A stretch of 64,000 nucleotides of DNA from Blastocladiella emersonii ATCC 22665. Lineage: Eukaryota > Fungi > Blastocladiomycota. This document shows positions 1 through 52,115 of this stretch, one piece after another. The position numbers and the translations under genes are program-made. Under the pieces are notes generated by a model. It searched no databases. It saw nothing but the letters and a program-made list of their open reading frames with translations, and was not told the DNA's origin. The stretch is taken from NCBI GenBank assembly GCA_025594325.1, contig JANHCV010000002.1, positions 1,674,001 to 1,738,000 of the forward strand, read 5' to 3'. The stretch's first letter is position 1, and each line of letters begins with the position of its first letter.

Positions 1-1886
1 GACGGGATCCAGATGAAAGAGTAGCTCTTGGCCGCGTCAAGGTACTCAATGCTCGAGAACTGAAGGAACTGGACATTGCCTTCAGCACGGCACCCGGTGA
101 CAAGCGACACTGCAATCATGTCCGTCATATTGTACAGCGCAAAGTTCACAGTGTGGGCTCCAGGGAGCGCGCCGTTTGCGTAGTAGCCCTTTGCATGGAC
201 GAGGTAGTAGCCACTGACAGGGGGTTTGACGCATCCATTGATCACAGACGTGAACGCGCCCGCTGTGGACTGGAACGCAAAGGTGGCCGGGCCCGTTGAT
301 GCTGTGCCGCCAATGATCTTGCCGCCCGTGGTCACTCCATTTGTAGAGCGGTGCTCGGCCTGAGCGACGTACCGGGTCGTGCCAGACCGCGAGTCAACGT
401 ACGCCTTGTTTGCCGCGTTGGTGCCTGCCACTGGAGCAAGGTCAAGGGTGAGCTGCCCTGTGAAGCGACCAGTGCCATTGACGCGGAACCTTTCTGTGCC
501 AAGCGTCGCCGAGCCCACGACCACATTGCCGCCACCTGCCACAAGGGAGACCCCGCCTGTGGTCGCAGACGCATTCTCAATGTTACCCGCCGCTGTGCAT
601 GCCAGGTTGCTTCGCAGTACGCCTGCCTGCTTAAAGTCGACGTACGTCAATGTATTGGCAGCCGAGTCAAAGACAAGGTTCGCGCTTGTGGCATTCCGGA
701 CCAGGACGTTGGGCACAGTCAGTTGCTTGCCAACTCCAAGACCACCAGCAATGGTGACTGCTCCAGTGCTTGATGTCAAACTGTCCGTCGTATTTGCAAA
801 GGCAAAGGCAGCGCCGAGTCCAAGGGTGGACTGGGGGAGCGTGCCAGTGACCGAGGCTGCGCTCACGGCCGTGACCTTGGCCGAGACGTCGGGGAGTCGT
901 GCCAGGTCAATGGTCCCTGCAAGCTTGGCCGAGTCAATGCCAGATGCCAGCTTGGCGTTGGTCAGGGTCCCGTTGGCGATGCGGGCAGGGTCAAGGATCC
1001 CAGTGAGCTTGACCGCCGACACGTCCGCGACCTTGGCGTCCGTGACTGCGCCTGCTGCCAGGTGGGCTGTTCCAATGGACCCGACGTTGAGCTTGCCCCC
1101 ATCAATGCCAGTTGCCAGCTTGGCGTTGGTCACGGCCGCGTCTGCCAGGACCAGGGAGCCAACCGTGCCTGCTGCCAGCTTGGACCCGTCGATGCCAGCT
1201 GCCACCTTGGCGTTGGATACAGCACCGTCTGCCAGGGCTCCCGTCCCAATAGTCCCTGCAACGAGCTTGGACCCAGACACAGACGCGACCTTGGCATCTG
1301 TGACTGCCAGGTCGATGAGAGCCACTGTGCCGACTGTGCCTGCCACGAGCTTGGACCCAGACACGGACGCGACCTTGGCATCAGTCACTGAGCCGTCTGC
1401 CAGGACCGAGGTCCCAACTGTGCCTGCCACGAGCTTGGACCCAGACACCGACGCGACCTTGGCATCAGTCACTGAGCCGTCTGCCAGAACCGAGGTCCCA
1501 ATGGCTGGGAGGTTGGACGCACTGAGTACGCCCACAACCTTGGACGCAGACACAGTGTCCAGCTGAGCATCAACGAGCTTGCCTGTGACCTGCCCTGCTG
1601 TAATCGTGGCGACCTTGTCGGCCGTGATGCTGGCTGGGAGCAGCTGTGCCGTACCAACCGACTTGACATAGAGCCCTGCTGCGCCCACGCCAAGGGTCTG
1701 GTTGTCGACCTTGGCCGACACAGTGGTCCCTGAGACTGCCACGCCAGGGCCAGCAACAGGTGTGCCAACCGTGGCGTACACGGCACTGATGGCCGCATCA
1801 ACGTAGGCCTTGGACACGTCCGGGACCCCCGTGGTAGACACGGTCAGAGACGCAGTACTTGAGACGTTAAAGATATTCTTGACCAT
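1..1886 (-). CDS. Viral fibre/spike-like protein, >620 aa, runs off the window edge; possible C1q-like C-terminal head
   Basis: Hand translation from ATG 1886: MVKNIFNVSS...SKAYVDAAI...; 28-aa repeats GTSVLADGSVTDAKVASVSGSKLVAGTV; STGAVTIAGGLGVGK; NKAYVDS; late VKPPVSGYYLVHAKGYY. Frame open to base 3. Absent from the ORF track because there is no stop. Confidence 0.8.
   Translation of the reverse strand, partial: MVKNIFNVSSTASLTVSTTGVPDVSKAYVDAAISAVYATVGTPVAGPGVAVSGTTVSAKVDNQTLGVGAAGLYVKSVGTAQLLPASITADKVATITAGQVTGKLVDAQLDTVSASKVVGVLSASNLPAIGTSVLADGSVTDAKVASVSGSKLVAGTVGTSVLADGSVTDAKVASVSGSKLVAGTVGTVALIDLAVTDAKVASVSGSKLVAGTIGTGALADGAVSNAKVAAGIDGSKLAAGTVGSLVLADAAVTNAKLATGIDGGKLNVGSIGTAHLAAGAVTDAKVADVSAVKLTGILDPARIANGTLTNAKLASGIDSAKLAGTIDLARLPDVSAKVTAVSAASVTGTLPQSTLGLGAAFAFANTTDSLTSSTGAVTIAGGLGVGKQLTVPNVLVRNATSANLVFDSAANTLTYVDFKQAGVLRSNLACTAAGNIENASATTGGVSLVAGGGNVVVGSATLGTERFRVNGTGRFTGQLTLDLAPVAGTNAANKAYVDSRSGTTRYVAQAEHRSTNGVTTGGKIIGGTASTGPATFAFQSTAGAFTSVINGCVKPPVSGYYLVHAKGYYANGALPGAHTVNFALYNMTDMIAVSLVTGCRAEGNVQFLQFSSIEYLDAAKSYSFIWIP
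1250..1500 (-). repeat. 84-bp (28-aa) tandem repeats in the fibre gene, with more degenerate copies to ~900
   Basis: ggacccagacac..gacgcgaccttggcatc recurs at ~1270, 1354 and 1438 (84-bp period). Confidence 0.85.
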
Positions 1887-1906
1887 GTTTAACCTTAAGC
1901 AACAGA

Positions 1907-2158
1907 ATGATTTCCAGCGACCATGACCTGAGCCTGGACGAGTGGCAGGAGCACCTCGCCGGGACCATGCCCGTGCCAAGCAGCTGGTACAGCAAGAGCG
2001 ACAAGGACAAGGCCAAGTGGCTACAGAAGCGCGACCGCAAGGCCAACCGGTACACGCACGTTGACGACGAGGCAGCGTGGGCAGAGCGGGTCAAGATCCG
2101 GATCTACAAGGCACTCAACGCCAAGCGCCGGGACCAGGGGGCAAATAGCACCGTCTGA
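1907..2158 (+). CDS. Viral hypothetical protein, 83 aa, basic
   Basis: Coding-like codon bias; divergent from the fibre gene across a 20-bp gap. Confidence 0.6.
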   Translation: MISSDHDLSLDEWQEHLAGTMPVPSSWYSKSDKDKAKWLQKRDRKANRYTHVDDEAAWAERVKIRIYKALNAKRRDQGANSTV

Positions 2159-2235
2159 GGGACAAAAGGCACCTGCCACGGGGAAAAAGGTACCGACAGG
2201 GGGACGTTTTATTTTCGGTCCATACAGTAACCATC

Positions 2236-3951
2236 ATGGGCCGAAGAACAGTACCAGAACTACTCGCAAGAGTGACCAAGGCAACCGACGGCCACATCAT
2301 GGCTGAGCGCCTTGCAGGGCAGAAGATCAAGGCGACCATTGATGGCCGCGAGTACACGTTCCCCAATGCCAAAGAGCTCCTCGACGTCTGGGTGCCTTAC
2401 ATCCTTGCCTTTGACTACAAGGTGATGCCCGAGAGCTATGCCAACGACTTTGGCCACAAACGAGGCGACTCGCTGTTCTACCTCAGGCACCAGGACGGCG
2501 TCACTGGGTACGAGGTCAAGGACCTCCAGGAGCACGTCCAAGATACGCTTAAAGCGTGGGAAGAGCACCAGGCAACGGGCAAGGTCACTTGAGTCCCAGT
2601 CACTCCACCAGCGGCAAGCCCCAGACCAGAGGCCCCCAAGTCGGCCACGGACAGCGACAGGGGCAGCAGCGAAGAAGAACGCGACGAGCTGGCAGAAGAG
2701 ATCTCACAAGCCCTGGACGTCATTGATGAGGACGCTGTACCGGACCACTTGCTCCCTGTGCCCGTCCGGCCAGTCATGCCCAAGCAGTACCCGGTCGAGG
2801 CCGGCGACTATGTTGGTCAAGACATTGACGAGTACGGCGCCATGATCCCTGGCCAGTACCTGATCCAGAATGACAATGACGGCGGCAACGACCCGCCCCC
2901 AAGGCTTGACGACAGCACCCGCGACCTTGTGGTCATGCCACCAAGCTACGGCCCGGACGTGGCACAGCGGCAAGGTGTGTACAACGAGGGTCACGTCCAC
3001 CCAGCCATGGACAAGGCACGCATGATCGAGGGCTCCAAGGACCTGCAGGTCTACAACCCCGAGCGGGCGCTGACAACCACGGACAACATGGAGGTCAACG
3101 TTGTCCAGAACTTTCAACAGTTTAACCAGTTCGTGTACAACAGCTACACGCAGCAGAACACGCAGAACGTCGACATGCGGCAGTTCATCACCCAGTACGA
3201 GAACAACTACTACAAGCAGAACGTGGACATGCGACAGCAGATCCTGGTCCAGTACAACAATGACCCGAACGTCATGGCCGCGCTCGAGCTCATTGCCTCG
3301 CAGTTTGCTGGGTCCCAGGTCATGCAGTTCCAGGCGTACCAGGCGCTCATTGAGCAGTCGGCGGCCGCTCAGGGACTGGCCATGGACGCATTTGCCAACC
3401 TTGCGTCCGGGATTGTGAACACGCTCCGAGCCGAACGCAACAACTTTGTCCGCCAGATTGACGCTGGCAACCGCGCGCTTGTGTCTGAGATTGCCACGGG
3501 CATGTCCTCTGCGCTCAGCAACCAGCAGGTGCTCATGAACCAGCTCGCAAGCGGCGTCCAGGGCGCGATCCAAGGGCAGACCCAGAGCAACAAGGCCATG
3601 ACCAAGACGCTCCAAGACCTTGGGTCCAAGCTGGACACGATCCCTGCACCCCAAGTCATTGTCCAGCCTGCTGACACAAGCGGCCTTGAGGCCATGATCA
3701 GGGAGCTGGCTGCGCAAAACAATTCTGGCGGTAGTTCTAAGAAGACCAACATGCTCCTCGAACAGATCCTCAAGCAGCTGGGCTACAAGAAGCCGACCAA
3801 CGCGAAGCTGTTCACAGACAAGCGGGCAGCGGGTAGCGGGCTGACAGCGCCCAAGATCCAGCGTCACCAGAAGATCCCTGAGCGGCCCGTCAAGCAGGTC
3901 TGCGAGACCCCAAAGCGCAGCAGCATTGTGCTTGACCTTGGCTGGGACTGA
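2236..3951 (+). pseudogene. Viral hypothetical ~570-aa protein with Q/N-rich coiled-coil C-half, split by an in-frame TGA at 2590-2592
   Basis: ORFs 2236-2592 and 2749-3951 are in the same frame; the reading continues GTC CCA GTC ACT (VPVTPPAASP...) directly after the TGA. Confidence 0.65.
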
Positions 3952-3977
3952 CGCCCTTTTTTGTTGGCAGTCTTTAA

Positions 3978-4776
3978 ATGTACAACATTGTTGCCATTGA
4001 CAACGGCTTTACGCGCAACGACGACGGCGAGCCGCTGCCAATCCCCAAGCACCTGTTCACCATGAACGTCATTGGCGCCAAGGGTCAGGGCAAGTCAATG
4101 CTGATCGCAAACATGGTCTGCTTCCCGCACTTTTACAAGGGCCAGTTTGACAACATCTGGGTCTTTAACCTGACGTTCCACGCTGACGACAAGTACGAGT
4201 ACATTGCCAGTCAACAGATCCTGCGACCGCCCAAGAAGGAGCGCAACGTGCTGGACCCCCAGGAGCGCGACCCGGACCGGCTCAAGATCAAGCCAGGGTG
4301 CATCGTCACAGACCCCGAGCAGTTCATCCCGACCCTGCTCAAGATGCGCCAGGACCTGACCAAGACATTCGAAGAGTCTGGCAAGAAGGCGCTCCAGGAC
4401 CAGCTGCTGATCATCGACAACGTGCTTGGGCTCAAGCTGCTGAGCCACAGAACGCTGACCAACTTTCTGTGCAACTCGCAGCACTTGAAGATCAGCTGCA
4501 TCATTGGCGTCCAGTGGTGGTGTGCCCTGCCCAAGACTCTGCGCATCAATTGCAGCTACAGCGTCGTCTACCCAATCTATGACAAGACCGAGGTCCAGAC
4601 GCTGCACAAGGAGATTGGGTCGCAGTTCGACCTCAAGGAGTTTGAGGCCATCATTGAACAGCTCCTTGACACGCGTACTGGCAACACAAAGCGACGCTTC
4701 CTGGGCGTCAACAAACCAGAACCCGCCCAAGTACCGGCTCGTAGACAGCTTCAGCAAGTGGATTGTGAAGCAGTAG
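3978..4776 (+). pseudogene. A32/FtsK-like viral genome-packaging ATPase, degenerate and frameshifted near 4710
   Basis: Walker A VIGAKGQGKS; Walker B LLIIDN (expected DD); NSQH (expected RH); LPKTLRIN. The natural-looking C-terminus NQNPPKYRLVDSFSKWIVKQ* is in another frame, ending at 4776. Confidence 0.85.
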
Positions 4777-4816
4777 ACTCTTGACTTCTTTTTGTTGCTG
4801 AGTCCTAAACTAAACC

Positions 4817-6037
4817 ATGTCCAGTACCAACGCCCAGTTCTCGCAGGTCCTGTCCAAGACTCTGCCTCCCGAGATGTTGTTCAACCTGCCCAAGGAGTCT
4901 GTCTATGCCGAGCGCCAGACCGTCCAGTTCACGGCTCAGGGCGGCCCCGAGTTTGCTCCTGGCAACAGCATCAGCGTCCTGCTCCCGCCGCGCGACAACA
5001 TGATGGACACGCACTGTACTTTCCTGCAGTTCTTGGCCAAGACCACGGACGCCAACGTCGCCTTCTGCGATGGTATCTTCAGCGTCATTGACCGTGTCCG
5101 CATCTACAGCGCGTCTGGTGCCCTACTCGAAGAGCTCCCGTACTACAACCTGCGTCAGTGCATCAAGGCCGATGTGACGGTCCCCCAGTACCTCAAGGAC
5201 TCGTGTCTTGGCGTGGCACAGGGCTACTTTGCGTCCGGCGCTGACAAGTTCGCTGTCTCGTCTGGGCTGCACCGGTACATGCTGCCCATCAAGTCCGCCC
5301 TGCTGGCGAACCAGAAGCACCTCCCAATGAAGTACACGGGCGGCATCTGCGTTGAGTTCACCCTTGCACCTGGCAGCGACGCTTGCGTGGTCAAGAACAA
5401 TGCGATCCTGGGCTACACAGTCAAGGACGTCTGCATCGTCTCGGACCTGATCAAGCTCAACGACCAGCAGATCGCAGTCATGAACGCGGCCTTCAAGAAG
5501 CAGGGCCTCAAGCTCTTTGGCACGACCTACAACCACCACTTCCTGAACTACTTGGTGCCCAACTTGACGCTCAACATCTCGGACCGCTCGGCCTCACAGA
5601 AAGACATCCTGCTGTCATTCCGCGACAATGCCGTGCTCAACGACAATGCCAAGGACTCGTTCCTTTGTGCCAAGACCATTACATCGTACCAGTTCAGCGT
5701 GGCCGGCTGACTCTTCCCTCAGCGACCCATCCGCTGTGACAACTACGCGTCCGAGGCGTTCGTTGAGCTGACCAATGCCTTCCATGGCCACGTCATTGGC
5801 GCTGGCCTCACAGTCGACAAGTTCAACGCGCCGGCCAAGGGTACCTTTGTTGTTGGCTGTGACCTCGAGTCGAGTCGCACCGTGGTCAGCGGCAACAAGT
5901 CTTGCAAGAGCCAGGCCGTGGACATGCAGGTGATCCTGACTTCGAGCGTGGCCCCAAACCAGCGCGTGGACGCCTTCATTGGCATCGACGTGGTCTACGA
6001 GTTCCTGCCAACCGGCGAGATCAACATCTACAAGTAA
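4817..6037 (+). pseudogene. Major capsid protein (double jelly-roll, PLV type), ~406 aa, with an internal TGA at 5708-5710
   Basis: FAPGNSISVLLP; GIFSVIDRVRIYSASGALLEELPYYN. After the TGA the frame continues LFPQRPI...FVVGCDLES...SG...FIGIDVVYEFLPTGEINIYK* (TAA 6035-6037). Confidence 0.85.
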
Positions 6038-6079
6038 CGGCCCTGTCCTTTCTTTTCTTGCGTAGAGTTAAACCCCGCC

Positions 6080-6346
6080 ATGATCTTCCGTAACCTCTGG
6101 ACCAACTTTAGCAATGTGCTCAGCCAGGTTGGGTCCTTTGTCAACAAACACATGCCGACCGTCCTCAAAGGCGTCAAGACTGTGTCCAAGTTCATTGAGC
6201 GGTCGCACAACCCCACCGTGAGCTCCATTGCGCAGATGGTGACCAAGGGCGCCAACCTTGCCCAAGACATTCACACCTGGTACAACCGACCAACAAGCGA
6301 GATCTTTGAGGCAGACGCTGACGACACGGGGGCAGCTGTACAATAA
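6080..6346 (+). CDS. Small viral protein, 88 aa, with an N-terminal amphipathic helix (adenovirus pVI-like, tentative)
   Basis: MIFRNLWTNFSNVLSQVGSFVNKHMPTVLKGVKTVSKF; lies between MCP and penton; has the shared upstream motif. Confidence 0.7.
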   Translation: MIFRNLWTNFSNVLSQVGSFVNKHMPTVLKGVKTVSKFIERSHNPTVSSIAQMVTKGANLAQDIHTWYNRPTSEIFEADADDTGAAVQ

Positions 6347-6364
6347 ATTGTTGTCTTTGTTTAA

Positions 6365-6849
6365 ATGTCCGAGTACAAGACGCTGACCATCTGCAGCCGC
6401 GACCTCAAGAACGGCATCCTGTACCTGCCACGACCCCTGTCCGTGCGCGGCGTCAAGGTCAACTTGGCGTACCTCTGCAACAGCTGGCACACGGTCAACT
6501 CCAAGGCCAACAAAGTGTACCTGACCCAGAGCCGTGGCGCGCTGACGTTCCCGGGCACCATCACCGTCCCTGATGGCAACTACACGGTCAAGACGTTCAC
6601 GGCCACGCTCAAGAGCCTGCTCAACAACGCGCCGTCGTCGTACCTCTGGCAGGGCACCTGGGACGTCCAGGTCGACTCGACTACCCAGAAGATGCGCCTG
6701 GCCAACGACACGGTTGACTTTACAATTGGAACAGGGACGGCGTCGCTGAACGTCCACATGGGCTTTGTTGGAGCGTATGGCTACAGCAAGGTCCAGTATG
6801 GGTTGGCGCTGGTCAACATCTCGCCCATCAACCTGCTTCACGTCTACTC
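6365..6849 (+). pseudogene. Minor capsid protein (penton), 5' part, interrupted by the retrotransposon
   Basis: LTICSRDL, LCNSWHTVN, VPDGNYT; ends ...LLHVYS at the TSD TACTC (6845-6849). Confidence 0.85.
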
Positions 6850-7023
6850 TGTAAGGTGCCGAGGGGGAGGGTCTTGTGCCACGAGGAATGACTAGCCGGA
6901 TAATGAAGGATTGTATCACGAATGACAAGAGAGAGGGAGAGCGAGGGCAACGCTCGGCTTATGAGGGACTGCGCCACCAGCCCGCGCCACCAGCCCGAGC
7001 CGTCGGATCACTGAACCGTGACA
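6850..7023 (-). repeat. 3' LTR (174 bp)
   Basis: tgtaaggtgcc...ccgtgaca; differs from the other LTR at one base (G6997 vs A12114). The polypurine tract GGAGGGGGAAGGGAGATAG (minus strand) is adjacent at 7024-7042. Confidence 0.97.
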
Positions 7024-10000
7024 CTATCTCCCCTTCCCCCTCCGCGGGTCGGGTTTTGACGGGTTCTGCGCGTGGAACTCGGCGAGCAGCTCGAGGTGCT
7101 TGAGGTTCGCGTACGGCTCCCAGGTGTTGTCGTCCTCGGGGCAGCCGTGCCACTTGAGCAGGTACTCGACGCTGCGGCCGACCTTGCGCGCGTCGCGGAT
7201 CGCCTCGACCGTCCACTCCTCGTGCCCGTTGACGGCGTACGGCGTTGGCGGCGGCAGCGCGCGGCCCGGGAACGCCTCCTCGTCGTGCTCGTCGATCGGC
7301 TTGATGAGCGAGACGTGGAACACGGGATGGACGCGCGCCATGGTCGGCGGCAGCTCGAGCTCGACGGCCGATTTCCGGATGAGGCGCACGATCTTGAGCG
7401 GCTCCGTGTACTTGGGCCCGAGCTTGGCCTTGGGCACGTTGACGCGCAGGTTCTTGGTGCTCAGCAGCACCATGTCGCCGACCTTGTAGTCGGGGCCCTC
7501 GCGGCAGCGGCGGTCAGCGTGCTTCTTGTACAGCTCCTTGGCGCGCTCGACCTTCTCGCGCAGCTTGCCCTGGACGTCGGCAATGCGCTCGGCCAGCGCG
7601 GCGGCTGACGGGACCCGATCCGACCGAACTGGCGCGGCCGAGAGCCGCGGGTCAAACGCGTAGTTGGCCTTGAACGGCGACATGCCCGTTGACTCGTTGA
7701 CCGTGTTGTTGATGGCCATCTCGGCGTACCGCAGCAGCTCGGCCCAGTTCGACTGGTCCTCGTTGGCGAACATGCGCAGGTACACCTCGAGGGTCTGGTT
7801 CATGCGCTCGGTCTGCCCGTCGGTCTGCGGGTGGTACGCCGTCGAGAGCTTGGCCTTGATCTCAAGCGACTCGCACATGGCCGACCAGAACCGCGACGTG
7901 AACTGCGACCCGCGGTCCGAGACGATGTCGTCGGGCAGCCCGTGCGGCCGCACCACGTGCTCGATGAAGGCGTCGGCGGTCGTGGCGGCCGTTGGGAGCG
8001 CGGCGAGCGGGATGAAGTGCGTCATCTTGGAGAACCGATCGACGACGACCATGATGCAGGTGTGACCCTTGCTGCGCGGCAGGTCCGTGATGAAGTCCAT
8101 GGAGATCGACGACCATGGCCGCGGCGGCGTGGGCAGCGGCTGCAGCTCGCCGTCAGGCCGGTGGCGCGGCACCTTGGCCCGCGCGCAGGTGAGGCACGAC
8201 TTGACGAACCGCTCGATCACCTTGCGCATCCCGGGCCACCAGTACGAGCGCGACACCTTCTCGATGGTGCGCTGGACGCCGAAATGACCGGCTACACGCG
8301 TCGCGTGCGCCTCCTCGATCACCCGGGTGCGCGCGACGCCTGACGGTACGTACAGCCGGTCGTCTCGCCAAACGAAGCCGTCGAGGTCCATGGTGAGCGA
8401 CGGGTGCTTGCCCGAGTTCCGCTGCATCGACTGCGCGAGCTCGTCCTCCGCCAGGCCGTCCCGAATCGCGGCGAGCACGTCGTCGCCCTGCGTGCCCGCG
8501 ACGAGCGGCGCGCTGGCCGCGGCCGTGGCGGCCACCGTGAGCGCCGACGCGGGAACGACAGCGCGGCCGAGCATCGGGTTGTCAAACAGCTCGTAGTCGG
8601 CGCGGCGCGACAGCGCGTCGGCGCGCCCGTTGATTGCGCCGGGCCGGTACGTGAACCGGAACGAAAACCGCTCGAGGAACAGTGCCCACCGCGCGTGCCG
8701 CTGCGACTCGACCGTCATGGTGCGAAAGTGCTCGAGGTTCTTGTGGTCCGTGTACACCTCGACCGGGTGCTGCGCGCCCTCGAGGTGGTGGCGCCAGATC
8801 TCGAACGCGACCTTGATGGCGAGCAGCTCCTTATCCAAGATGGGATAATTCAGCTCCGCCGCCTTGAGCGCGCGCGAGTGGAACGCGACCGGCCGCAGCG
8901 TGCCCTCGTTGTCGACCTGCGACAGGACGCACCCAATGGCGAAGTTGGACGCGTCGGCCTCGACAATGAACTGTTTTGAGGGGTCGGGGTGCGCGAGGAA
9001 CTGGTCGGACGCGAACCGCGTCTTGATGGCCGCAAAGGCCGCCGCCTCGGTGTCGCCCCACCGCCACGGCGTGTCCTTCTGCGTAAGACGGGTGAGCGGG
9101 ATGGTCAGTTCCGAGAACTCGGGGATGAAGCGGCGGTAGTAGTTGGCGAGGCCCAGGAACGCCTGCACCTCCTTGACCGTCCGTGGCGCGGGCCACTCGG
9201 TCACGGCGCGGACCTTGGCCGGGTCCATCTCGACGCCCTCGGTGGTCAGGATGTGGCCGAGGTACTCGACGCGCGTCACGTCGAATTCGCACTTCTCGAG
9301 CTTGACGTACAGCTTGTTGTCGGCGAGCCGCTGCAGCACCTCCTTGACGAGCGCCGTGTGCTCTTCGGGGTCCTCGCTGAAGATGAGGATGTCGTCCAGG
9401 TACACGAGAACGCCGCGGCGGTCGAGCAGGTCGCGGAACACGTCGTTGACAAACGCCTGGAACGCGGCCGGCGCGTTGGTCAGCCCGAACGGCATCACCA
9501 TCCATTCATAATGTCCGTAGCGCGTGCGGAACGCCGTCTTCCACTCGTCGCCCTCGCGGATGCGGACCAGGTTGTACGCGCCGCGCAGGTCGAACTTGGT
9601 GAAGATGCGCGCGCCCTGCACTTGGTTCATGAGCTCCGCGATGAGCGGCAGCGCGTAGCGGTTCTTGACCGTCAGCGCGTTGAGGCGGCGGTAGTCCACA
9701 CACATGCGGCGCGACCCGTCCTTCTTGGGCACGAACATGATCGGCGCGCCGGCTGGCGACCGCGATGGGCGGATGAAGCCGCGCGCGAGGTTCTCGTCGA
9801 TGGTCTTGCGCAGCTCCTCGAGTTCGGGCTGCGACAGGGCGTAGACGGGCAGGAACGGCACCTTGGCGCCCTCGACGAGCTCGATCTCGCAGTCGTACGG
9901 TCGGTGCGGCGGGAGCGCGGACGCCGCGGCGGCATCGAAGACGTGCGCCCACTTGAGGTACTTGGCGGGCAGCACGCGCTTCGGCGCCGCGTCATCTGGC

Positions 10001-10857
10001 GCCTCGGGCGGGCCGTGTGCCTCGTCCCACGCGAGCGGGTCGAGGTCGACGCGCGGTGCGACCGTGGCCACCGTGACGCGCTGGGCGGGCGGGCACCCGC
10101 AGCGACCAGTGCACGCGCCGTCAATCGCGACCGTGGCCGAGCGCGGATCCGGCTTCGCGCCGTTCGCGACCATCCATTCGAGTCCCATGATCACCGGAAA
10201 CGCGGGAGAGTCGACGACGAGGAAGCGCGCGACCGAGCAATGAAGGCACGGAATGTCGATGGCGCGACCCGCGTCTCCCACCACGCGCTTCTGCTTGGAC
10301 GCGTCGCCGGGAGGCACGACGCCGTCCGCGAACACGGTTTGGGATCCCGCGACCGCCGCGTGCAGGAACTCGGGCGACGTGACGGACACGGCCGCGTGCA
10401 CGTAATGCGAGATGTACTGGCGCTGGCCCGGCGCGGAACCGACGACACCGCGGAGGTCGATGCGACGCGCTAGGCGCTTCGGCACGAGCCCGGCCTGCTC
10501 GGCCACCCTGCGGCTGATCAGGTTAACCGGCGCGCCCGTGTCGAGCATCATGAACGTCGGGATCGGCGCCGTGCGGAGCCCTGGATGCGCGAGGAGCCCG
10601 CCGAGGTGCTGGTGGTCCTGCGCCATCTCTAGACGCACAAGTGCACCAAAGTACGCAGCAACAGATTTTCCATTAGTCTTCTTATCATTCATGTTTTGTT
10701 TCTTCTTTTTGTTCATTTTTTTCTTCTTGTCGGCGGGCACCGACATCTTATCCGCGGCGGCGGCCGCCGTGGCCATCGCCGTTGTACCACCCAAATCCGC
10801 AGGTTTTGGCTTCGAGGACGTCGCGGCCTGCTCCGCTACGCCCGACTGGCGTTTCCC
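7024..10857 (-). CDS. pol: Pol: aspartic protease, RT, RNase H, integrase and chromodomain
   Basis: LDTGA; YLDDILI; VEADAS; HHCC motif; MDFIT/SDRGSQF/QTERMN; GPKY; chromodomain EEWTVEAIRDARK...YLLKWHG...NTWEP. Confidence 0.97.
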   Translation of the reverse strand, partial: GKRQSGVAEQAATSSKPKPADLGGTTAMATAAAAADKMSVPADKKKKMNKKKKQNMNDKKTNGKSVAAYFGALVRLEMAQDHQHLGGLLAHPGLRTAPIPTFMMLDTGAPVNLISRRVAEQAGLVPKRLARRIDLRGVVGSAPGQRQYISHYVHAAVSVTSPEFLHAAVAGSQTVFADGVVPPGDASKQKRVVGDAGRAIDIPCLHCSVARFLVVDSPAFPVIMGLEWMVANGAKPDPRSATVAIDGACTGRCGCPPAQRVTVATVAPRVDLDPLAWDEAHGPPEAPDDAAPKRVLPAKYLKWAHVFDAAAASALPPHRPYDCEIELVEGAKVPFLPVYALSQPELEELRKTIDENLARGFIRPSRSPAGAPIMFVPKKDGSRRMCVDYRRLNALTVKNRYALPLIAELMNQVQGARIFTKFDLRGAYNLVRIREGDEWKTAFRTRYGHYEWMVMPFGLTNAPAAFQAFVNDVFRDLLDRRGVLVYLDDILIFSEDPEEHTALVKEVLQRLADNKLYVKLEKCEFDVTRVEYLGHILTTEGVEMDPAKVRAVTEWPAPRTVKEVQAFLGLANYYRRFIPEFSELTIPLTRLTQKDTPWRWGDTEAAAFAAIKTRFASDQFLAHPDPSKQFIVEADASNFAIGCVLSQVDNEGTLRPVAFHSRALKAAELNYPILDKELLAIKVAFEIWRHHLEGAQHPVEVYTDHKNLEHFRTMTVESQRHARWALFLERFSFRFTYRPGAINGRADALSRRADYELFDNPMLGRAVVPASALTVAATAAASAPLVAGTQGDDVLAAIRDGLAEDELAQSMQRNSGKHPSLTMDLDGFVWRDDRLYVPSGVARTRVIEEAHATRVAGHFGVQRTIEKVSRSYWWPGMRKVIERFVKSCLTCARAKVPRHRPDGELQPLPTPPRPWSSISMDFITDLPRSKGHTCIMVVVDRFSKMTHFIPLAALPTAATTADAFIEHVVRPHGLPDDIVSDRGSQFTSRFWSAMCESLEIKAKLSTAYHPQTDGQTERMNQTLEVYLRMFANEDQSNWAELLRYAEMAINNTVNESTGMSPFKANYAFDPRLSAAPVRSDRVPSAAALAERIADVQGKLREKVERAKELYKKHADRRCREGPDYKVGDMVLLSTKNLRVNVPKAKLGPKYTEPLKIVRLIRKSAVELELPPTMARVHPVFHVSLIKPIDEHDEEAFPGRALPPPTPYAVNGHEEWTVEAIRDARKVGRSVEYLLKWHGCPEDDNTWEPYANLKHLELLAEFHAQNPSKPDPRRGKGR

Positions 10858-11912
10858 GACGACGAGCGCGGGGGCGACGGGCAATCAGCCGCCTTGTGGC
10901 CGTAGCCCTTGCAGTTGTAGCACTTGATGTCGGTGAGGGCGCGGCCCTGGTGCGCCGCCGCCCGCTGCCGAATCGCGCCAACGTCCATGGCGTCCGGGTC
11001 CGGGACGAGCTCGGCCGCGACGCCCGTCGCCCCGCCCTCGTGCACCAGGAAGTGCTCGACCATCTTGTCGAAACGGTAGCCCTTGCGCAGCGAGGCGAAG
11101 GCCACGTCCGCGGCCAGCGGCGAGTTGCCGGCCGTGACCACCAGGTAGAACTGCATCGCCAGCTCGCTGAGCGCGCGGTAGCCTGCACCGGACGCGGTCT
11201 GGCGGAACTTGGAGACGAAATCGCGCGCCGGCATGGCGCCGCGCACGTACTTGAGGTTCTTGAGCTCGTGCGCGTACTCGGTCTCCGACTTCTCGGCCGG
11301 CTGCGTTGACTTGACGAGGGAGATGTAGGCGTTGAACGAGCCGTAGTCCTCAAACTTGGACCCGGCCATCGCCAGCTCCACGGCCTTGAGCACCTTGCCT
11401 GTCAGCTTGCCGTGGAAGTGCGCAATCTTGAACTTCTCCGGGACGTTGAACGTGAGCTGGAGGATGCTCTCGTACTGCGTGATGGCGCTCTTGACCTTGA
11501 AGTTGACGCCGTCAACCGAATTCATGCGCATCAGCGCGTGCATCGCGGCCGGCGTGAAGCCATCAACGCCCACGCCCGGCCCGCGCGCGCTGCTGACCTG
11601 GATGCTGTCGAGCTCGCCCTGCAGGATACCGTTGAGCGGCTGGCTCTGCTGCGTCTGCCGCAGCTCGACCTCGAGCGCATACGCGCGGCGCTCCGCCGTC
11701 TCGGCGCGCCGCTCGGCCGCGACCGCGCGGGCCTCGGTCGACACGCCCAGTTGCCAGTAGTCGCTGGCGACGTTGAGCGCGAGGAAGACGAGCTTGGCTT
11801 TGTCCTCGTACGGCATGACCAGGTCGCGCCACGGCGCGAGCTGGTACTCGGGGACAATGGCCGCAACGTCAAACGTCGCCAGCTTTTCGAGGAACTGTGC
11901 CGGCGTTATCAT
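10836..11912 (-). CDS. gag: Gag with a coiled coil and a C-terminal CCHC zinc knuckle
   Basis: KCYNCKGYGHKAADC near the C-terminus; first ATG inside the element at 11912 (MITPAQ). Confidence 0.9.
   Translation of the reverse strand: MITPAQFLEKLATFDVAAIVPEYQLAPWRDLVMPYEDKAKLVFLALNVASDYWQLGVSTEARAVAAERRAETAERRAYALEVELRQTQQSQPLNGILQGELDSIQVSSARGPGVGVDGFTPAAMHALMRMNSVDGVNFKVKSAITQYESILQLTFNVPEKFKIAHFHGKLTGKVLKAVELAMAGSKFEDYGSFNAYISLVKSTQPAEKSETEYAHELKNLKYVRGAMPARDFVSKFRQTASGAGYRALSELAMQFYLVVTAGNSPLAADVAFASLRKGYRFDKMVEHFLVHEGGATGVAAELVPDPDAMDVGAIRQRAAAHQGRALTDIKCYNCKGYGHKAADCPSPPRSSSGNASRA
10851..10857 (-). promoter_or_regulatory. Putative -1 ribosomal frameshift heptamer G GGA AAC joining gag and pol
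   Basis: X XXY YYZ pattern in the gag frame (S-G-N); a -1 slip gives G-K-R-Q-S of pol. Confidence 0.8.
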
Positions 11913-11955
11913 TTTGCCGTCGTGGAAGAAATCACCGCTCGGAGGGGGTTTTACG

Positions 11956-11964
11956 GTGATACAA
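11956..11964 (-). promoter_or_regulatory. Self-priming PBS (TTGTATCAC) complementary to GTGATACAA inside the LTR (12028-12036)
   Basis: Perfect 9-bp inverted match; no TGG tRNA-type PBS next to the 5' LTR. Confidence 0.65.
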
Positions 11965-11966
11965 AG

Positions 11967-12140
11967 TGTAAGGTGCCGAGGGGGAGGGTCTTGTGCCACG
12001 AGGAATGACTAGCCGGATAATGAAGGATTGTATCACGAATGACAAGAGAGAGGGAGAGCGAGGGCAACGCTCGGCTTATGAGGGACTGCGCCACCAGCCC
12101 GCGCCACCAGCCCAAGCCGTCGGATCACTGAACCGTGACA
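11967..12140 (-). repeat. 5' LTR (174 bp)
   Basis: Direct repeat of 6850-7023, followed by the TSD TACTC at 12141-12145. Confidence 0.97.
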
Positions 12141-12404
12141 TACTCGTGCAACCTTGGCACCTGGCTTGCGGACAACATGTACAGCGCGTATCCACAAGAC
12201 AACGGCGTACTTTGTAGCATCCACGTCACGCAACCCTTTGGCAGCTGGTTTGAGCATCGACCACACATGGGTGACTACTTTTGCTTTGACGCGCAGGGAC
12301 AGGCCCAGCAGATTGACTGTATTGACATTGACGTGGTAGACGAGAACCTGCGCTCTGTCAACTTTCTCGGCCAACCCTTCTACGTTGAGCTCGCGTTCAT
12401 CTGA
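12141..12404 (+). pseudogene. Minor capsid protein (penton), 3' part
   Basis: Continues in frame once the element is removed: YSCNLG...IDIDVVDENLRSVNFLGQPFYVELAFI*, a typical penton C-terminus. Confidence 0.85.
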
Positions 12405-12435
12405 CGTTGACTTTAATTGTTGTTGTACTGTAAAC

Positions 12436-12537
12436 ATGATCCTTGAGACGCTCCTTGTTGCCACCAACGCCCTGATCCTCGTAGCCAACCTGGCCATTGT
12501 CTGGTACACGAGCAAAGTATTCCGCGCCGTAGAGTAA
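12436..12537 (+). CDS. 33-aa single-pass membrane microprotein (viral)
   Basis: MILETLLVATNALILVANLAIVWYTSKVFRAVE*; preceded by the shared TGTTG-N8-TAAAC motif. Confidence 0.65.
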   Translation: MILETLLVATNALILVANLAIVWYTSKVFRAVE

Positions 12538-12545
12538 GCAACGAC

Positions 12546-12743
12546 ATGTGCTTTAAATTCTTTCTGCAAAGGCATAGTAAGACACAGGACAATGAATACT
12601 GGCTCTACTGCATCAACGCCCCGCGCACCTTCCACGAGCATCCCTTGGACTGGCCATCTGGGCCCCCAGTCGACAGCCAACTACACAGCCATCTGCGACG
12701 TGGCCCTGCCAGGTGCCAAGGTTGTGTACACTGTCTGCTTTGA
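12546..12743 (+). CDS. Small Cys/His-rich viral ORF, 65 aa, uncertain
   Basis: Follows the 33-aa ORF after 8 bp; ends CQGCVHC; no upstream motif. Confidence 0.35.
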   Translation: MCFKFFLQRHSKTQDNEYWLYCINAPRTFHEHPLDWPSGPPVDSQLHSHLRRGPARCQGCVHCLL

Positions 12744-12797
12744 ATAGATCCTTCAAGTTAACTTGGTTAGCTACCTTGAAGCCTTTACTGGTCGCTC

Positions 12798-12950
12798 TCA
12801 GACTACCCGGCGGTATGTGTACTTGTGCCCGCAGCACGGGTACACAACTTGGACCCACAGCAGCTCATTGTCGTAGACCCAGCTGGGAGCATTGTAGTGA
12901 TTGCATGGCGGCTTGGGCAGGGGGACGATCTCTTTGATACAGCCTTGCAT
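12798..12950 (-). CDS. 50-aa Cys-containing viral ORF
   Basis: MQGCIKEIVPLPKPPCNHYNAPSWVYDNELLWVQVVYPCCGHKYTYRRVV*; preceded by TGTTG-N8-TAATT. Confidence 0.55.
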   Translation of the reverse strand: MQGCIKEIVPLPKPPCNHYNAPSWVYDNELLWVQVVYPCCGHKYTYRRVV

Positions 12951-13180
12951 AATTACAGTAGTCCAACAAAGTTTAAATTGACAAACGCATTCAACGCACT
13001 TGGCATGACGTAGCAACGGGACACACTATGACATTGACATAAAGTAGAAATAAGGGGTGCTCCGCCCTGTCCAGGAAGCGTTGGCCAAGCGCCTCCCAGG
13101 CTGCTCCATGCTGGAGGTCTCCTTTCATGGTGGCCAGCCACTAATCAGAGTTCCAACACGGAGCAGGCATCATTGCTAAT

Positions 13181-13325
13181 ACTCATCGAACCACACAGCG
13201 CCAACACACCCAAAAGACTCATTGAACCACACAGCGCCAACACACCCAAAAGACTCATTGAACCACACAGCGCCAACACACCCAAAAGACTCATCGAACC
13301 ACACAGCGCCAACACACCCAAAAAG
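13181..13325. repeat. Tandem repeat, 4 x 36 bp
   Basis: actcat(c/t)gaaccacacagcgccaacacacccaaaag starting at 13181, 13217, 13253 and 13289; no spacers. Confidence 0.95.
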
Positions 13326-13692
13326 AGAGAGAGATAGGAATGGATCAAAGAGCACTGCATGGGTAGCTAATCCAAGCAGCGCCCACAATCCAGACCAAGA
13401 CAGGGGATAACCAAGTCATTGCCGTGCACATACAGATGACTCAGCAGATCCCAAGCCAAAGGAATAGGGAAGTGGCCACCCGCAATGTCGGCCATGCACC
13501 CATACCAGAAGCCTACTGTGAGCGTTGGGCGCATTGCAAAGATGGCCTATACAATCAGAGTAGGGCTTGAGGCAGTGAATCTGTGACATGGCTTTCATGG
13601 TGAGTGGCAAAGAGCAGCTCTCAGGGCAGGGGGAGTGGGGGGTTCTTATAGGGCCAGGGTTAGCGCTAAATCCTCAGGCACAGGGCCCTGAT

Positions 13693-13935
13693 CTGGCACC
13701 CCCGACGTGACCCCCCGCCTGACCCCCTGCCTGACCCCCCGCGTGACCCCTGCCTGACCCCAGACCTGACCCCCGCCCTGGCACCCCAGACCTGGCACCC
13801 TGACCTGGCACCCTGACCTGACCCCCCGACCTGGCACCCCAGACCTGGCACCCCAGACCTGGCACCCCAGACCCTCCATGACCCGGCACCCCTGACCTGG
13901 CACCCCAGACCTGGCACCCCAGACCCTCCATGACC
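13693..13935. repeat. C-rich minisatellite of ~12-bp (tgacccccc-cc) and 14-bp (acctggcaccccag) units
   Basis: Direct inspection. Confidence 0.9.
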
Positions 13936-14092
13936 TGCCACGCTGCCTTCCTGCTAAGACGCTGTCTGCTAAGACGCTCCTCTGCCTTTGACCTTGTACC
14001 TTGACCCTGTCCTGCCCAATACATTGATGCTGCTAAGGACGCTCCCCCGTCCTCAACCTCCCCCCCGTACCCTGACCTCTGTCTCTGACAAT

Positions 14093-14160
14093 CTCCACTT
14101 TCATGGCAAAAAAGGGTAGTGTATATGTATACCCTGTCGTAATATGCCATGAAAGTGGAG
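14093..14160. repeat. Hairpin with perfect 16-bp arms and an inner 6-bp stem
   Basis: ctccactttcatggca (14093-14108) / tgccatgaaagtggag (14145-14160); inner agggta/taccct. Confidence 0.9.
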
Positions 14161-14460
14161 GTTGGCGCGGTGAGTGGCTTCATAGCAGCCGCTTGCGGCA
14201 GGTGGTTGGGGACGGGCTTGGGGGTCAGGTCAGGGACCAGACCAGGGAACTCTGTCAGTGGGTAGCTGCAGCTGCGCTGCTCTTCGTCTCGCTGCGCTCG
14301 CTGGCCGCCGCCGACCGCTCGGGGTAAGCAATGGTCAGCCCAAGGGGTTGGTCAGGGACTGGCTTGGGGGTCAGGTCAAGGACTCACTCCTTGACCACTT
14401 GCCCCCTCCCTTCCACCCACCCTCCCGCCCACCTGCTTTGGCCTTCGGCCTCCGTCCGCG

Positions 14461-14639
14461 TGTCGTGTTCCCTAAGGGAACACGACATTTGAATCCGACA
14501 TATTATTAACCACCTGGGGTAAGCAACTGGGTCTCACGTGGTTACCCCAAGTGACTGCCACCAACCGCTCGGGGTAAGCAATTGGTCAGCCCGAGTGGCA
14601 GTGGGTCAGCCCATGTCGTATCCCTTAAGGGATACGACA
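14461..14639. repeat. Two related palindromes at the element end
   Basis: TGTCGTGTTCCC-TAA-GGGAACACGACA (14461-14487) and the perfect TGTCGTATCCCTTAAGGGATACGACA (14614-14639). Confidence 0.92.
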
Positions 14640-14895
14640 GCTGTTCCTCCACAGTACCAACCTTACAGATATTGGCGTCACGGCTCTGATTGAGCACCAG
14701 TCGCTGCGACTCATGGACTTGAATCTCGCCGGTTCTACGCTTAGCGACGCGACAATCAAGCTCGTTCTTGCGAGCATGCCAGAGACTCTACGCTGGGTCA
14801 GTTTGGCCAGCGTGACCGATTCTGCCACAGGCGAGCTGGTCGACGTCACGCAGTATCATCCCGGCCTGCATCCTGAGTTCATTTTGGACGATTAG
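14638..14895 (+). pseudogene. 3' fragment of a host LRR gene truncated at the viral junction
   Basis: QLFLHSTNLTDIGVTALI...MDLNLAGSTLS...LRWVSLASVTDSATGELVDV aligns with the C-termini of the LRR genes at 15241 and 22923. Confidence 0.75.
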
Positions 14896-15240
14896 ATTTG
14901 ATTACTTTTTGTTTAATATAACCAGTCACGGAGCGAATCGAGTGATACTGACGGTCGCCTGTTTAATTTGAATACTTCGCTGTAGCAAGCGCTCAACGCG
15001 TAGTTTAATACCTTGAGCATTACCGCCCCGAGCAGGCTGGCATGGGGCTGATTGGGGCCATGTTTACTAGGCGGTTGGTGATCCCTCTCGCAGCGGGGGA
15101 ATATTCGGATGCTGAGGAGAGCGACACGGCCGACGCTACGCGTCGCGCCACACAGCTGAGCTCCACAAGGCTCGCGTTGACCAACTCGTTGACCGACTCG
15201 TTGCGGCTTGCTCCTGGTGCGCCGCATGAAACCCACAAAA

Positions 15241-16745
15241 ATGAATCCAATGGAAACACAACTTGCTGCAATGCCACTGCCGGACATGGTTATTGATCGC
15301 ATTTTATGCTACTCCGTTTGGGCGAGTGACCCTAACAACTTCAACCAAATGGCTCAATACGGCTGCGTCTTGCTTCGCGACGCAGCTCCCTGCGCCCACC
15401 GCGCGATCCGGGAGCACCTACTCTCTGACTCCATGGACGAAGCCAGTGCGGCAGGGCTTTTGCGCGTCCTCGACATGTGGCGCCAGTCCAGGAAACCGCT
15501 TGTGTACTCTGCGCGCGCCATCACCGGCGCGGCATCGTTGTACAAGACACTCGACTGGTGGCGCCACTCCGGGCTTCCGCTTCCCGATTGTACTGTTGGG
15601 CGCATGGTTCAAGTCCACTTCAATGGGGATTGCTGCTACCTTTATCCGCGCGGTCGTGACAATTTTGTGCGTAAACACTCGCCTTGTGCACTTGAGTAAC
15701 CTGTTGAGACTCACTTTGCTCGATGCTGCCGCTTGTAATATAGCAACTTGAGCGCCACAACAGTCCACCCGGCGACGCCTTCATCGCTACGGTGCTTCCT
15801 GAAGTGCGCGGCGGCTGCGAAGATCCGGACTTGGTAGATTACAGTGGAGGGCGCATCACTACGTTGGGCGCAACTGCTCTCGCTGACGCCATGGCTGCAC
15901 CGTTCGCCAATGTTGAGTACATCACTTTCGAGTGCTGCGACATCACGTTCCCTGTTCTTTGCGCGCTGCGCGTGCCCAAGTCGGTCATCGAGCTCGATCT
16001 CAGCCATAACTGGATAAGCGAGGGCGCTGCCAACTTTGCCCAGGCGCACGACAATATCCCACCCTTTCCAGAGGACCTACGGGACCTTCACATTCAGCAC
16101 AACATTTTGGGGGATCCTCGGGACGTTGAGGTTCTGTTCCGCTCTCTGCCGCTGGTGCTAAATGCTCTCAATCTGAAGGGTACTCGCCTTGGTACCGATT
16201 ACACGCAGTTTCTCGCCCGCCACCTCCCACAATCGCTTGAAAGGTTGTATTTGTGCAACTGCCAGATTGGCTCGGAGGGCATGGAAGTGCTCGCACCTCG
16301 GCTTCCGCGCACTCTCAGCTCACTTGATTTATCCTCGAACGATATCACAGCAGTGGGTGCTGCGCATCTCGCCCAATTTTTCCCACCCTCGATTTTCAGC
16401 ATTACACTCAATCGAAACCCACTTGGCGACGAGGGAATCGCGACTCTCTCCAGGTGTTTATCAACGGTCACGCACTCAATCGACCTCTGCGACACGGCCA
16501 TGACCGAAGTTGGCGCCGCCGCGATCACCAAGAGCCTGCACCGGGGTCTGGCGTCACTTGATGTCGCTGGTGCAATGCTCAGTTACGAGGCTCTCAAGCG
16601 CGTATGTGAGCGCGTCCCAAAGCGCTTGTACTGGCTTGGAGTTTTCAACGTGATCGACCCCGAAACTGGTTGCCAAGTCGATGCCCCGCGGCTCGTCCGC
16701 GAGGTGAAGCCCACTTTTCGCCTCCTGTGTAGCGAGACTCCGTAA
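15241..16745 (+). CDS. LRR (RNI-like) protein with an N-terminal F-box-like/ankyrin-like 'LDWW..SGL' region; intron 15667-15743
   Basis: Exon 1 LPDMVIDRIL...LDWWRHSGL; GTGCGT...TAG intron joins RDNF to QLERHNSPPGDAF; LxxLxLxxNxI repeats. Confidence 0.8.
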
Positions 16746-17191: not shown

Positions 17192-18561
17192 ATGAAACTC
17201 TTAAACGACAACATGAAAACTTACGCCGCCGTCGTGGCCGTGCTGGCCTCCGTGATCCTGATCGCAGACGCTGCGCTCGGATCTCCGCTACCCAAGGGCG
17301 GTGGCGGTGGCCATGGAGGTGGTGGCAGCCACGGAAGCAGCGGCAGCGGCGGACACGGCGGCTCGAGCGGCGGTAGCAGCCCTGGAAGCGACATCTACGG
17401 ATGTACGAGTTTGCAACGATCCGCTCTTGTCATCGCTTGCTCACAGAACGTACCCCTGTAGCGCGCTACCCGCTCGTCTCGAGTGGTCCTGGCGGATACA
17501 GCGGATACTGGGTCCCGTCTCGCGTCTACTACGGGTCCAGCACGACGCGCACCGACTGCGTCTTCGTTTCCACGGGCGGGCGAGCCGACGACAGTACAAG
17601 CCAGCCAACGTGTTCGACCAAACCTCCCAACATGGCCGGATTCTACGTTGCCGGTGCTCTTGCCGTCGTGATGATGTTTTACACGTGCTTCAAGTGCAGC
17701 GCCAACAACGCTCAGCGCGAGGACTCGTCCAAGAAACGAGCCGACCAAGCCGCTGTGGCGGCAACGGAGGCGGGCTCGCTTGCGGTGCCGATCCACAACG
17801 CCTCAAGCGAGGCCGCCGCTCGGGCGCTTGACTATGTCCGCAACAACCCGCCGCGCCCGCTCGCGCTCGACGCGCAGATACTCAAACGCATGGCGTCGCC
17901 GGCTAACTGGTCGTTTGTGGTGCCGCCCGACCACGACGCGTTCGTGTCCATCGAGGACGGCACGCGCGTCACGCTGTTCGGCCAGCCCATCTCGCGCGCT
18001 GGGCTCGACACGGACCTCGCCATCGTGCCCAACCTCCCGCTGCCGCTCATAGCTACCGAACCACCTGCAACTGCTGACGCGACGGCGACGCCCGGACCAA
18101 CGACGCGCGCGATCCTGTACTTTGAGGTGACGGTCGTGAACATGGACCCGCAGACAACGGTTGCTGTTGGCCTCACGACCGCCCCGTGGCCAACGTTCCG
18201 CTTGCCAGGCTGGAACGCGTGGTCCGTCGGTTACCACAGCGACGACGGCCGCTGCTACTCGAGCGACGACGGCCAGGGCGTCGAGTACAGCAAGCCATAC
18301 CGCATCGACGACGTGATTGGCGTCGGCGTCAACACGGGCGACTGGTCCGTCTTCTTCACGCGTAATGGCGTCAAGCTCGCGACCGTGTCCAGCGCTCGCG
18401 TGCCAGCGCCTCGTCTCGCGGTTCACCCGGCCATCGGCGCCAATGGCCGCGCGAGCCTTGAGGTCAACTTTGGCACGTGGCCGTTCAAGTGGGAGCCCGC
18501 GAACGAGGGCCAGTTTGGGCTTGCGCTCGACGTGTTGCTGCGGTACTCTGTGAACGCGTAG
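17192..18561 (+). CDS. Signal peptide, Gly-rich segment, TM and SPRY/B30.2 protein (Ssh4/Ear1-like), copy 1; intron 17403-17461
   Basis: ILYFEVTV, VGYHSDDG, VIGVGVN, VFFTRNG, VNFG..PFKW. Start approximate (ATG near 17192 or 17213). Confidence 0.8.
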
Positions 18562-21155: not shown

Positions 21156-21360
21156 TTACCATCAAACTTTGTGATATACGCGTCAATCAATCCGTCTCCA
21201 TCGCATTCAACTGATCGAAGCTCCTGGGCCCACATGGCCGCTCCTCGCGCGCGCACGGACTTGGCCAACTTCGCCCGCAAGCGGGCGAACGCTTTTGGCT
21301 GCGTAGCGCCGCATCGGCTTCTTCTCCCTCAACGAACAGGTTCAAGCGATGTATTCAATC

Positions 21361-22592: not shown

Positions 22593-22922
22593 GCGAGCGA
22601 AGCGGATTTTGATACATTTGAAGTTTTGTGCTCTCAGCGCTAGTGCGTGCGTCCGTTTCTCCAAGCAAGGATAGATTTGGTCGCGCGCTCATGCTGCCTT
22701 GGGGCATTACTGAAGAAGGAGTGTGCGTAGATAGAGCTGTTGCCTCCGAGTCAGTGCTTCCTTTTTTTGGCTCTGTGGCGGCGGACCTTCGCTTCGACTC
22801 GTTCGAGTCGAAGTCGCGTTGATCAAACGCACGTGGGCAAGGCGACGCCACAACTCGCTGTGCAACGCCGCTTCCCTCGCTCTTCCCCCGCTCTCCCCCG
22901 CGCTCGCTCTGAAGCGCCGAAG

Positions 22923-52080: not shown

Positions 52081-52115
<35 letters not shown>

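Follow-up and report, generated by a model that had tools for sequence, protein, structure and literature searches.

Gene content and layout of the element

The DNA analysed here is a 64-kb window of the Blastocladiella emersonii ATCC 22665 genome (contig JANHCV010000002.1; 64,000 nucleotides, to which all positions below refer), and its bases 1–14639 are the right-hand part of a real, integrated Polinton-like virus (PLV). The identity of the element as an endogenous virus of the PLV type is very probable, and the copy present in the window is dead. Three layers with a host boundary were distinguished: a viral gene block, a retrotransposon nested within it, and host DNA from 14640 onward. The viral gene block is compact and has a guanine-plus-cytosine (GC) content of 52–59% versus 67% in the host. 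An earlier note on this DNA, made from the letters alone, had taken the whole of 1–14639 as the element; the viral parts are indeed present, but only about 9.3 of the 14.6 kb are viral, whereas the retrotransposon, which that note overlooked, takes up 36% of the span. The fibre, ATPase, major capsid protein (MCP), amphipathic peptide, penton and small open reading frames (ORFs) that it had listed were all recovered in place by ORF calls, Pfam and profile searches, and its description of an intronless module also holds, as the viral ORFs are open throughout and continuous without introns.

On the left-hand side, a fibre-like protein is encoded on the minus strand (3..1886); 628 amino acids are visible before the gene runs off the window start, with a PF09327 match of 40.1 bits (cut-off 22) and matches to tail-fibre families in PHROGs. 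Judged by eye, it comprises a repeat shaft and a likely C1q-type head, and in sister copies the fibre ends 19 residues beyond the end seen in the window. The other viral genes lie on the plus strand, starting with a basic ORF of 83 amino acids (1907..2158), which has no credible match, and a 571-codon ORF (2236..3951) with a TGA at 2590, an acidic N-terminal part and a glutamine/asparagine-rich helical middle. An A32-type packaging ATPase (3978..4776; Pox_A32, PF04665, above cut-off) is broken by a one-base insertion near 4713, and its Walker A and Walker B residues are altered. The window copy cannot work because two genes contain stop codons, the ATPase is frameshifted with altered Walker motifs, and the penton gene is split.

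The major capsid protein

The MCP gene (4817..6037, plus strand) has 406 codons and, in the window copy, a TGA at 5708–5710. Read-through of this codon or a special genetic code was considered and rejected, since sister copies have a sense codon there and other contigs have C at 5708. Searches by sequence with the MCP against Pfam, PHROGs and PDB returned nothing. Relatives were collected by scanning metagenomes with a motif common to the window MCP and a capsid, similar-looking by eye, in the supplement of PMC7805220 (this paper, PMC9730499, PMC13533422 and the two bioRxiv preprints compared below are cited from the parts of them that were available). Among the 55 loci obtained, 49 carry an MCP match, and of those 49, 20 also have a penton match and 19 an ATPase match. 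A profile built from 41 metagenomic rows and no fungal rows scored 51.5 bits with residues 1–280 of the window MCP (motif excluded), compared with a best score of 2.8 bits in a control of 500 shuffles (355 reported).

The first structural model, built from five close copies, was poor, with a predicted local distance difference test (pLDDT) value of 33.8, and the weak capsid hints in its fold searches were discounted. The second model used an intact sister copy (P0015, 96% identical) and a 45-row alignment seeded with the PLV capsids found by the motif, and reached a pLDDT of 71.4 and a pTM of 0.76. Its top Foldseek match is the PBCV-1 capsid (E 2.6e-16, TM 0.60), and a VIA fold search aligned it to the PBCV-1 capsid chain with a Z score of 23.6 and a root-mean-square deviation of 3.3 over 333 residues. 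Rows 1–16 of the VIA search are all viral capsid or scaffold proteins, before Z drops to 7.5 at row 17. The structural matches include the PBCV-1, iridovirus, Sputnik, mavirus and PRD1 capsids; Sputnik (Z 18.0) and mavirus (Z 17.6) score lower than the capsids of nucleocytoplasmic large DNA viruses (NCLDV; Z 19–24), and no protease is in view. The double jelly roll that the earlier note had attributed to the MCP is thus the fold predicted by the sister-copy model.

Amphipathic peptide, penton and nested retrotransposon

Between the MCP and penton genes lies an ORF for an amphipathic peptide of 88 amino acids (6080..6346), whose hydrophobic moment is 0.51 versus 0.27 in shuffles, a value reached by none of 2000 shuffled sequences. 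The peptide is likely an internal membrane-active capsid protein. The penton, or minor capsid protein, gene is split by the retrotransposon into a 5' part (6365..6849) and a 3' part (12146..12404), both on the plus strand. The two parts are joined in sister copies, and short-read contigs (four runs from one sample) pass directly from the 5' into the 3' part. The 5' part scores 50.7 bits on the profile of the relatives, and the penton family profile, in which 19 of the 23 rows are metagenomic, matches the PBCV-1 penton variant P1v1 (E 1.8e-5) and the EhV-201 penton (E 0.052). This family profile supports the assignment of the gene adjoining the MCP as a penton. Downstream are a 33-amino-acid ORF with one predicted membrane helix (12436..12537) and overlapping ORFs of 65 and 51 amino acids (12546..12747, plus strand as well), possibly one frameshifted gene. 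Among the proteins of metagenomic relatives that were fetched, there is no match to the 83-, 571- and 88-amino-acid ORFs or to the small ORFs.

The insertion inside the penton is an intact and recent Ty3/Gypsy chromovirus on the minus strand (6850..12140), a passenger that is no part of the virus. Its long terminal repeats (LTRs; 6850–7023 and 11967–12140) differ at 1 of 174 nucleotides, and it is flanked by a TACTC 5-bp target duplication (6845..6849 and 12141–12145). Between the LTRs are gag (10836–11912) and a pol of 1,250 amino acids (7024–10776) with reverse transcriptase, RNase H, integrase and chromodomain. Further LTR copies with other flanks were found in the contigs, so the chromovirus family is multi-copy.

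Right end and host junction

Past the small ORFs, a non-coding end region (13178..14400) contains a 36-nt tandem repeat (13178–13357), C-rich short repeats (13686–13945) and an imperfect inverted repeat (14089–14164). The element terminates in a perfect palindrome of 26 nt (14614..14639) that ends with CA-3' at the host junction. A perfect inner palindrome of 27 nt (14461..14487), located 153 nt inside, departs from the terminal one symmetrically, with the differences on both arms. Both palindromes have 13-bp arms, which are the longest in the 64 kb (the next is 10 bp), and this arm length was reached by none of 300 simulated sequences. A piggyBac-like end with a central TTAA was also considered and dropped, because the arms have the opposite orientation.

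Immediately adjacent is the insertion site, a 3' remnant of a host leucine-rich repeat (LRR) gene on the plus strand (14640..14895). The frame open from 14641 encodes an LRR-protein C-terminus of 84 residues; it resembles the paralogue located at 23525, with 41% identity across 39 aligned columns (E 3e-5). The structured terminus cutting a host LRR gene, as proposed earlier, is made of palindromes with 13-bp arms followed by this C-terminus. F-box/LRR-like host genes are repeated at 14640–16745 and 22920–24352, and a second viral copy seems to lie inside another member of this family. Insertions into the F-box/LRR-like family may reflect a target bias or merely a large family.

In two sequencing runs, a junction contig covering 14611–17000 shows zero differences from the window and single-copy depth, and a third run covers 14611–15426. 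A second contig, seen in two runs, exits the element at the same base 14639 into a different flank on the other strand; this flank resembles the window at 15623, a sequence type that belongs to a repeated host gene family. The depth of the last 80 nt is 2.3–3.1 times the coding depth, a weak hint of inverted repeats. In the broad sense, PLVs are characterised by terminal inverted repeats on a genome of roughly 15–40 kb and by a replication gene and an integrase (rve or tyrosine recombinase) of their own.

These contigs bear on the concern, raised with the first description, that the assembly is chimeric here or that the virus is a free contaminant. The viral GC content below that of the host and the origin of all short-read contigs from one sample would fit such an artefact; however, the junction contig has single-copy depth, a host-type retrotransposon with its target duplication and host-type CpG decay are found inside the element, and 12 megabase-sized contigs of the HiFi assembly carry copies (PMC9730499). 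As far as the short-read contigs show, the junction is no chimera, and the artefact explanation is largely refuted and extremely improbable.

Copies in the genome and their decay

We searched 5.8 billion proteins with word-indexed methods, on which the isolation of the lineage rests. The MCP search returned seven clusters (5,163 candidates) and the ATPase search three (116 candidates), all from B. emersonii ATCC 22665, in agreement with the earlier suggestion that the host is a zoosporic fungus; 7 of the 11 clusters in the fibre-head search (1,384 candidates) are from the same strain. The search for further copies that the note had suggested yielded at least 24 loci, namely 20 ATPase gene tags and 4 MCP tags next to which no ATPase is listed, spread over 12 contigs of 1.07–2.84 Mb. 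This count is a lower bound, with 15 of the 26 members listed for the largest cluster. The gene order fibre, ATPase, MCP and penton is kept across copies according to the gene tags. The summed contig depth of the element is 19–33 times that of the single-copy flank in the three runs with usable flank depth, a quantity that is not a copy number. According to the B. emersonii genome paper, HiFi reads were assembled into 21 contigs; viruses go unmentioned in its main text (PMC9730499). Two public gene models reproduce the lesions of the window copy itself, and the models P0005, P0011, P0027 and P0051 use false introns to join viral genes that are in fact separate, under the name of hypothetical fungal proteins.

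The MCP shows 18 differences from the sister majority, 15 of them compatible with C-to-T changes at CpG, and the same holds for 7 of the 12 ATPase differences from one sister, suggesting that the window copy has decayed mostly through CpG-type C-to-T mutation. The observed/expected CpG ratio is 0.83 in viral genes versus 1.31 in the host; the retrotransposon is not depleted either. Silencing by host CpG methylation is likely on these grounds.

The many near-identical copies, which differ mostly by C-to-T decay, could also be explained by a capsid-bearing transposon: one old infection followed by Maverick-like spread within the genome, the capsid genes being passengers that form no particles today. 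Several copies are near one another by gene tag, as such spread would produce, and no close relative was found in the metagenomes or viral contigs searched. However, there are at least three subfamilies with 82–87% MCP identity in which the full 406-residue frame and the gene order are intact, suggesting capsid selection until recently, and full-length gene models exist for 10 MCP and 13 ATPase sequences. We regard the transposon explanation as unlikely.

A shared upstream motif

The motif TSTTG-N8-TAAA stands directly before six viral starts, at 1888..1904 on the minus strand and at 3962, 4793, 6056, 6349 and 12418 on the plus strand, that is, before the fibre, ATPase, MCP, 88-amino-acid peptide, penton and 33-amino-acid ORF. 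These are its only six occurrences in 64 kb, where 0.05 are expected, and none of 100 shuffles reproduced the count; the motif was defined after inspection. It is a candidate late promoter. In the relatives, the exact motif was found at none of 38 starts, and TAAA lies at the start codon in 25 of 38 (10 of 20 for MCP and 15 of 18 for penton).

Late initiators of NCLDV resemble a motif ending in TAAA before start codons. The fixed-spaced motif before six starts would therefore fit a virophage-like parasite, whose copies are activated only by a giant virus of the Mycodnaviridae, express their late genes through the RNA polymerase of this helper and thereby protect the fungal population. The relatives, with their VLTF3 genes and frequent TAAA at start codons, point the same way, as does the high copy number, a feature of other helper-dependent elements. 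In addition, giant viruses infect Blastocladiomycota (PMC13533422), but Blastocladiella is unnamed in the main text and checked supplements of that paper, which show no giant virus for this host. The GC content of the viral part (58–59%) is close to that of the host, and the motif could equally bind a nuclear factor of the host or the virus. A virophage-like life is compatible with the anatomy of the element but improbable, on a par with the transposon explanation.

Proposed life cycle and its weighing

The explanation that we favour is a decayed integrated PLV, present at no fewer than the 24 loci counted, that probably integrated via palindromic CA-ended tips and was probably silenced by host CpG methylation; we give it, as a whole, a probability of about three in four. 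The icosahedral capsids of PRD1, adenovirus and NCLDV are assembled from trimers of the MCP and pentamers of the penton, fibres project from their vertices, and an ATPase packages the DNA. By analogy, the MCP and penton of the element would form such a particle, the vertex fibre would mediate attachment, the ATPase would pump DNA into the capsid, and the amphipathic peptide would breach the membrane of the wall-less zoospore during entry. The six genes of the structural region would be co-expressed late from the shared motif. The free genome would be linear, with inverted repeats and fold-back tips; a retroviral-type (rve) integrase would attach the tip to host DNA by its CA-3' end, so that the 26-bp palindrome stays where virus and host meet, and the left part would carry this integrase together with a helicase or primase-type replication gene. 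The rve-integrase and fold-back steps are an even bet. Integration would have been followed by methylation, decay and, finally, the chromovirus insertion.

Several points weigh against this explanation. In the visible 9.3 kb of virus we saw no viral polymerase, helicase or integrase, and neither a left end nor a target duplication of the virus; of the set that marks Mavericks/Polintons, namely protein-primed polymerase B (pPolB), rve integrase and adenain-type cysteine protease, none has a domain match there, as the earlier note had already remarked for polymerase, integrase and protease. The pPolB of the nearest relatives argues against fold-back priming, if the element has one too. The profiles of the relatives give only 1.4 bits for the 3' part of the penton, below shuffles, and 5.3 bits for MCP residues 299–406 alone, and the modelled MCP is that of a sister copy, not the window copy, from an alignment seeded with motif-found PLV capsids. 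The viral side of the junction contig is only 29 nt, under the 31-nt bridge rule, and summed contig depth overcounts with short contigs, which weakens the hint of inverted repeats. Finally, the element is known here from sequence.

To our knowledge, fungi have yet to yield an isolated double-stranded DNA virus in this range of sizes. According to a 2026 preprint (10.1101/2025.04.19.649669), no class I virus has been isolated from fungi, and giant-virus infection in fungi has been reported (PMC13533422). A further, rather doubtful possibility is that the Blastocladiomycota harbour a separate PLV lineage with dozens of copies, whose intact members make particles upon giant-virus infection or loss of methylation through the shared late promoter. 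If true, fungi would have both a small double-stranded DNA virion and an antiviral defence of the virophage type, open to study in an established laboratory strain. Earlier fungal PLVs are single elements or gene matches. B. emersonii offers a culturable model fungus, a long-read genome, and multiple copies in several subfamilies with many full-length capsid and ATPase frames. Because the host is culturable and many copies have full-length capsid and ATPase frames, direct tests can address activation, helper dependence, the structure of the ends and silencing by the host, and B. emersonii would be a promising organism in which to seek a small fungal DNA virus particle.

Other genes of the window

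The host part of the window contains three tandem membrane-protein paralogues with a SPRY domain (17401–18561, 20496–21155 and 21234–22592; Pfam matches on two) and an intronless ATP-dependent DNA ligase of 572 amino acids and compact type with the OB domain PF14743 (26338–28056). On the minus strand, a Ham1/ITPase domain is fused to an N-terminal region, HAD-like when judged by eye (60487–62088). A PAS-guanylate cyclase (40438–42924, minus strand) and a hybrid histidine kinase (51877–54618, plus strand) are both ordinary for the host fungus.

Relatives and comparison with known systems

Exact peptide pattern scans of metagenomes and viral contigs gave no relative, and neither did phage records; on viral contigs the strict form of the capsid motif had no hits, and its looser form gave nine unrelated loci. 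The metagenomic loci found by the motif are PLVs of the Spizellomyces punctatus group; 30 proteins from six of them include polymerase B (3), chitinase (3), VLTF3 (2) and A32 (1). One metagenomic PLV contig (L039:1589-5338) carries two adjacent divergent MCP genes of the same capsid family. PLV penton/ATPase matches also occur on contigs filed as Flavobacterium and Microcoleus (L066 and L068), likely mis-binned viruses.

The MCP identity to the 41 metagenomic rows is 20–25%, short of the 30% threshold used for PLV clusters (bioRxiv 10.64898/2026.06.19.733378) such as the S. punctatus group. An unrooted MCP tree of 43 of the 45 rows places the four fungal copies together on a single long branch, apart from this group. 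The element looks like a lineage of its own, because the nearest relatives found, which are freshwater PLVs, share only this 20–25% identity; the motif that shaped the reference set was tuned to the S. punctatus group and biases it, and the actual nearest group may differ. The earlier suggestion of an undescribed fungal PLV lineage stands insofar as no close relative was found outside this genome, but PLVs in zoosporic fungi, including Spizellomyces and Allomyces, are already in print (PMC7805220). Our literature search found no PLV or Polinton from Blastocladiella, and the main texts checked do not name the genus, although preprint supplements and subscription papers may list one; a 2023 protist survey excluded fungi. 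No Allomyces protein appeared in the word-indexed searches with the MCP or ATPase, and the Allomyces element may belong to the same lineage.

The MCPs of the element and of the S. punctatus PLV group (PC_0050, Bellas and Sommaruga 2021, PMC7805220) are colinear, their pentons and A32 ATPases are homologous, and the group likewise has fibre genes and a zoosporic fungus as a known host. Typical of the group are pPolB and, in about half of the members, chitinase; the visible part of the element has no pPolB, chitinase or VLTF3. The two also differ in the length of the MCP (406 amino acids here versus about 530–560 in the group), in the amphipathic peptide between MCP and penton, in the ATPase immediately before the MCP and in the many genomic copies found here.

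At its right end, the element resembles Halocafeteria seosinensis virophages and PLV subtype 4 (bioRxiv 10.64898/2026.07.28.741278), with which it shares a palindrome at the extreme end and nested transposons. In that system, the palindromes are tied to rve integrases and replication genes other than pPolB, and hairpin priming was proposed in the same preprint. The element differs from the Halocafeteria elements in palindrome length (26 nt versus 52 nt in subtype 5), in the extra inner palindrome and in its fungal host. No perfect palindromes of at least 12 bp were found in the metagenomic loci L001–L065, whose ends may be absent.

Integrated PLV morphogenesis genes comparable to those described here are known from the same phylum in Allomyces macrogynus (MCP, ATPase and helicase; PMC7805220) and from zoosporic fungi more widely as chytrid A32 ATPases (bioRxiv 10.64898/2026.06.19.733378). 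Elements of this kind are thus already known from chytrids and Allomyces, and what is new is the Blastocladiella member, its copy number and its divergence.

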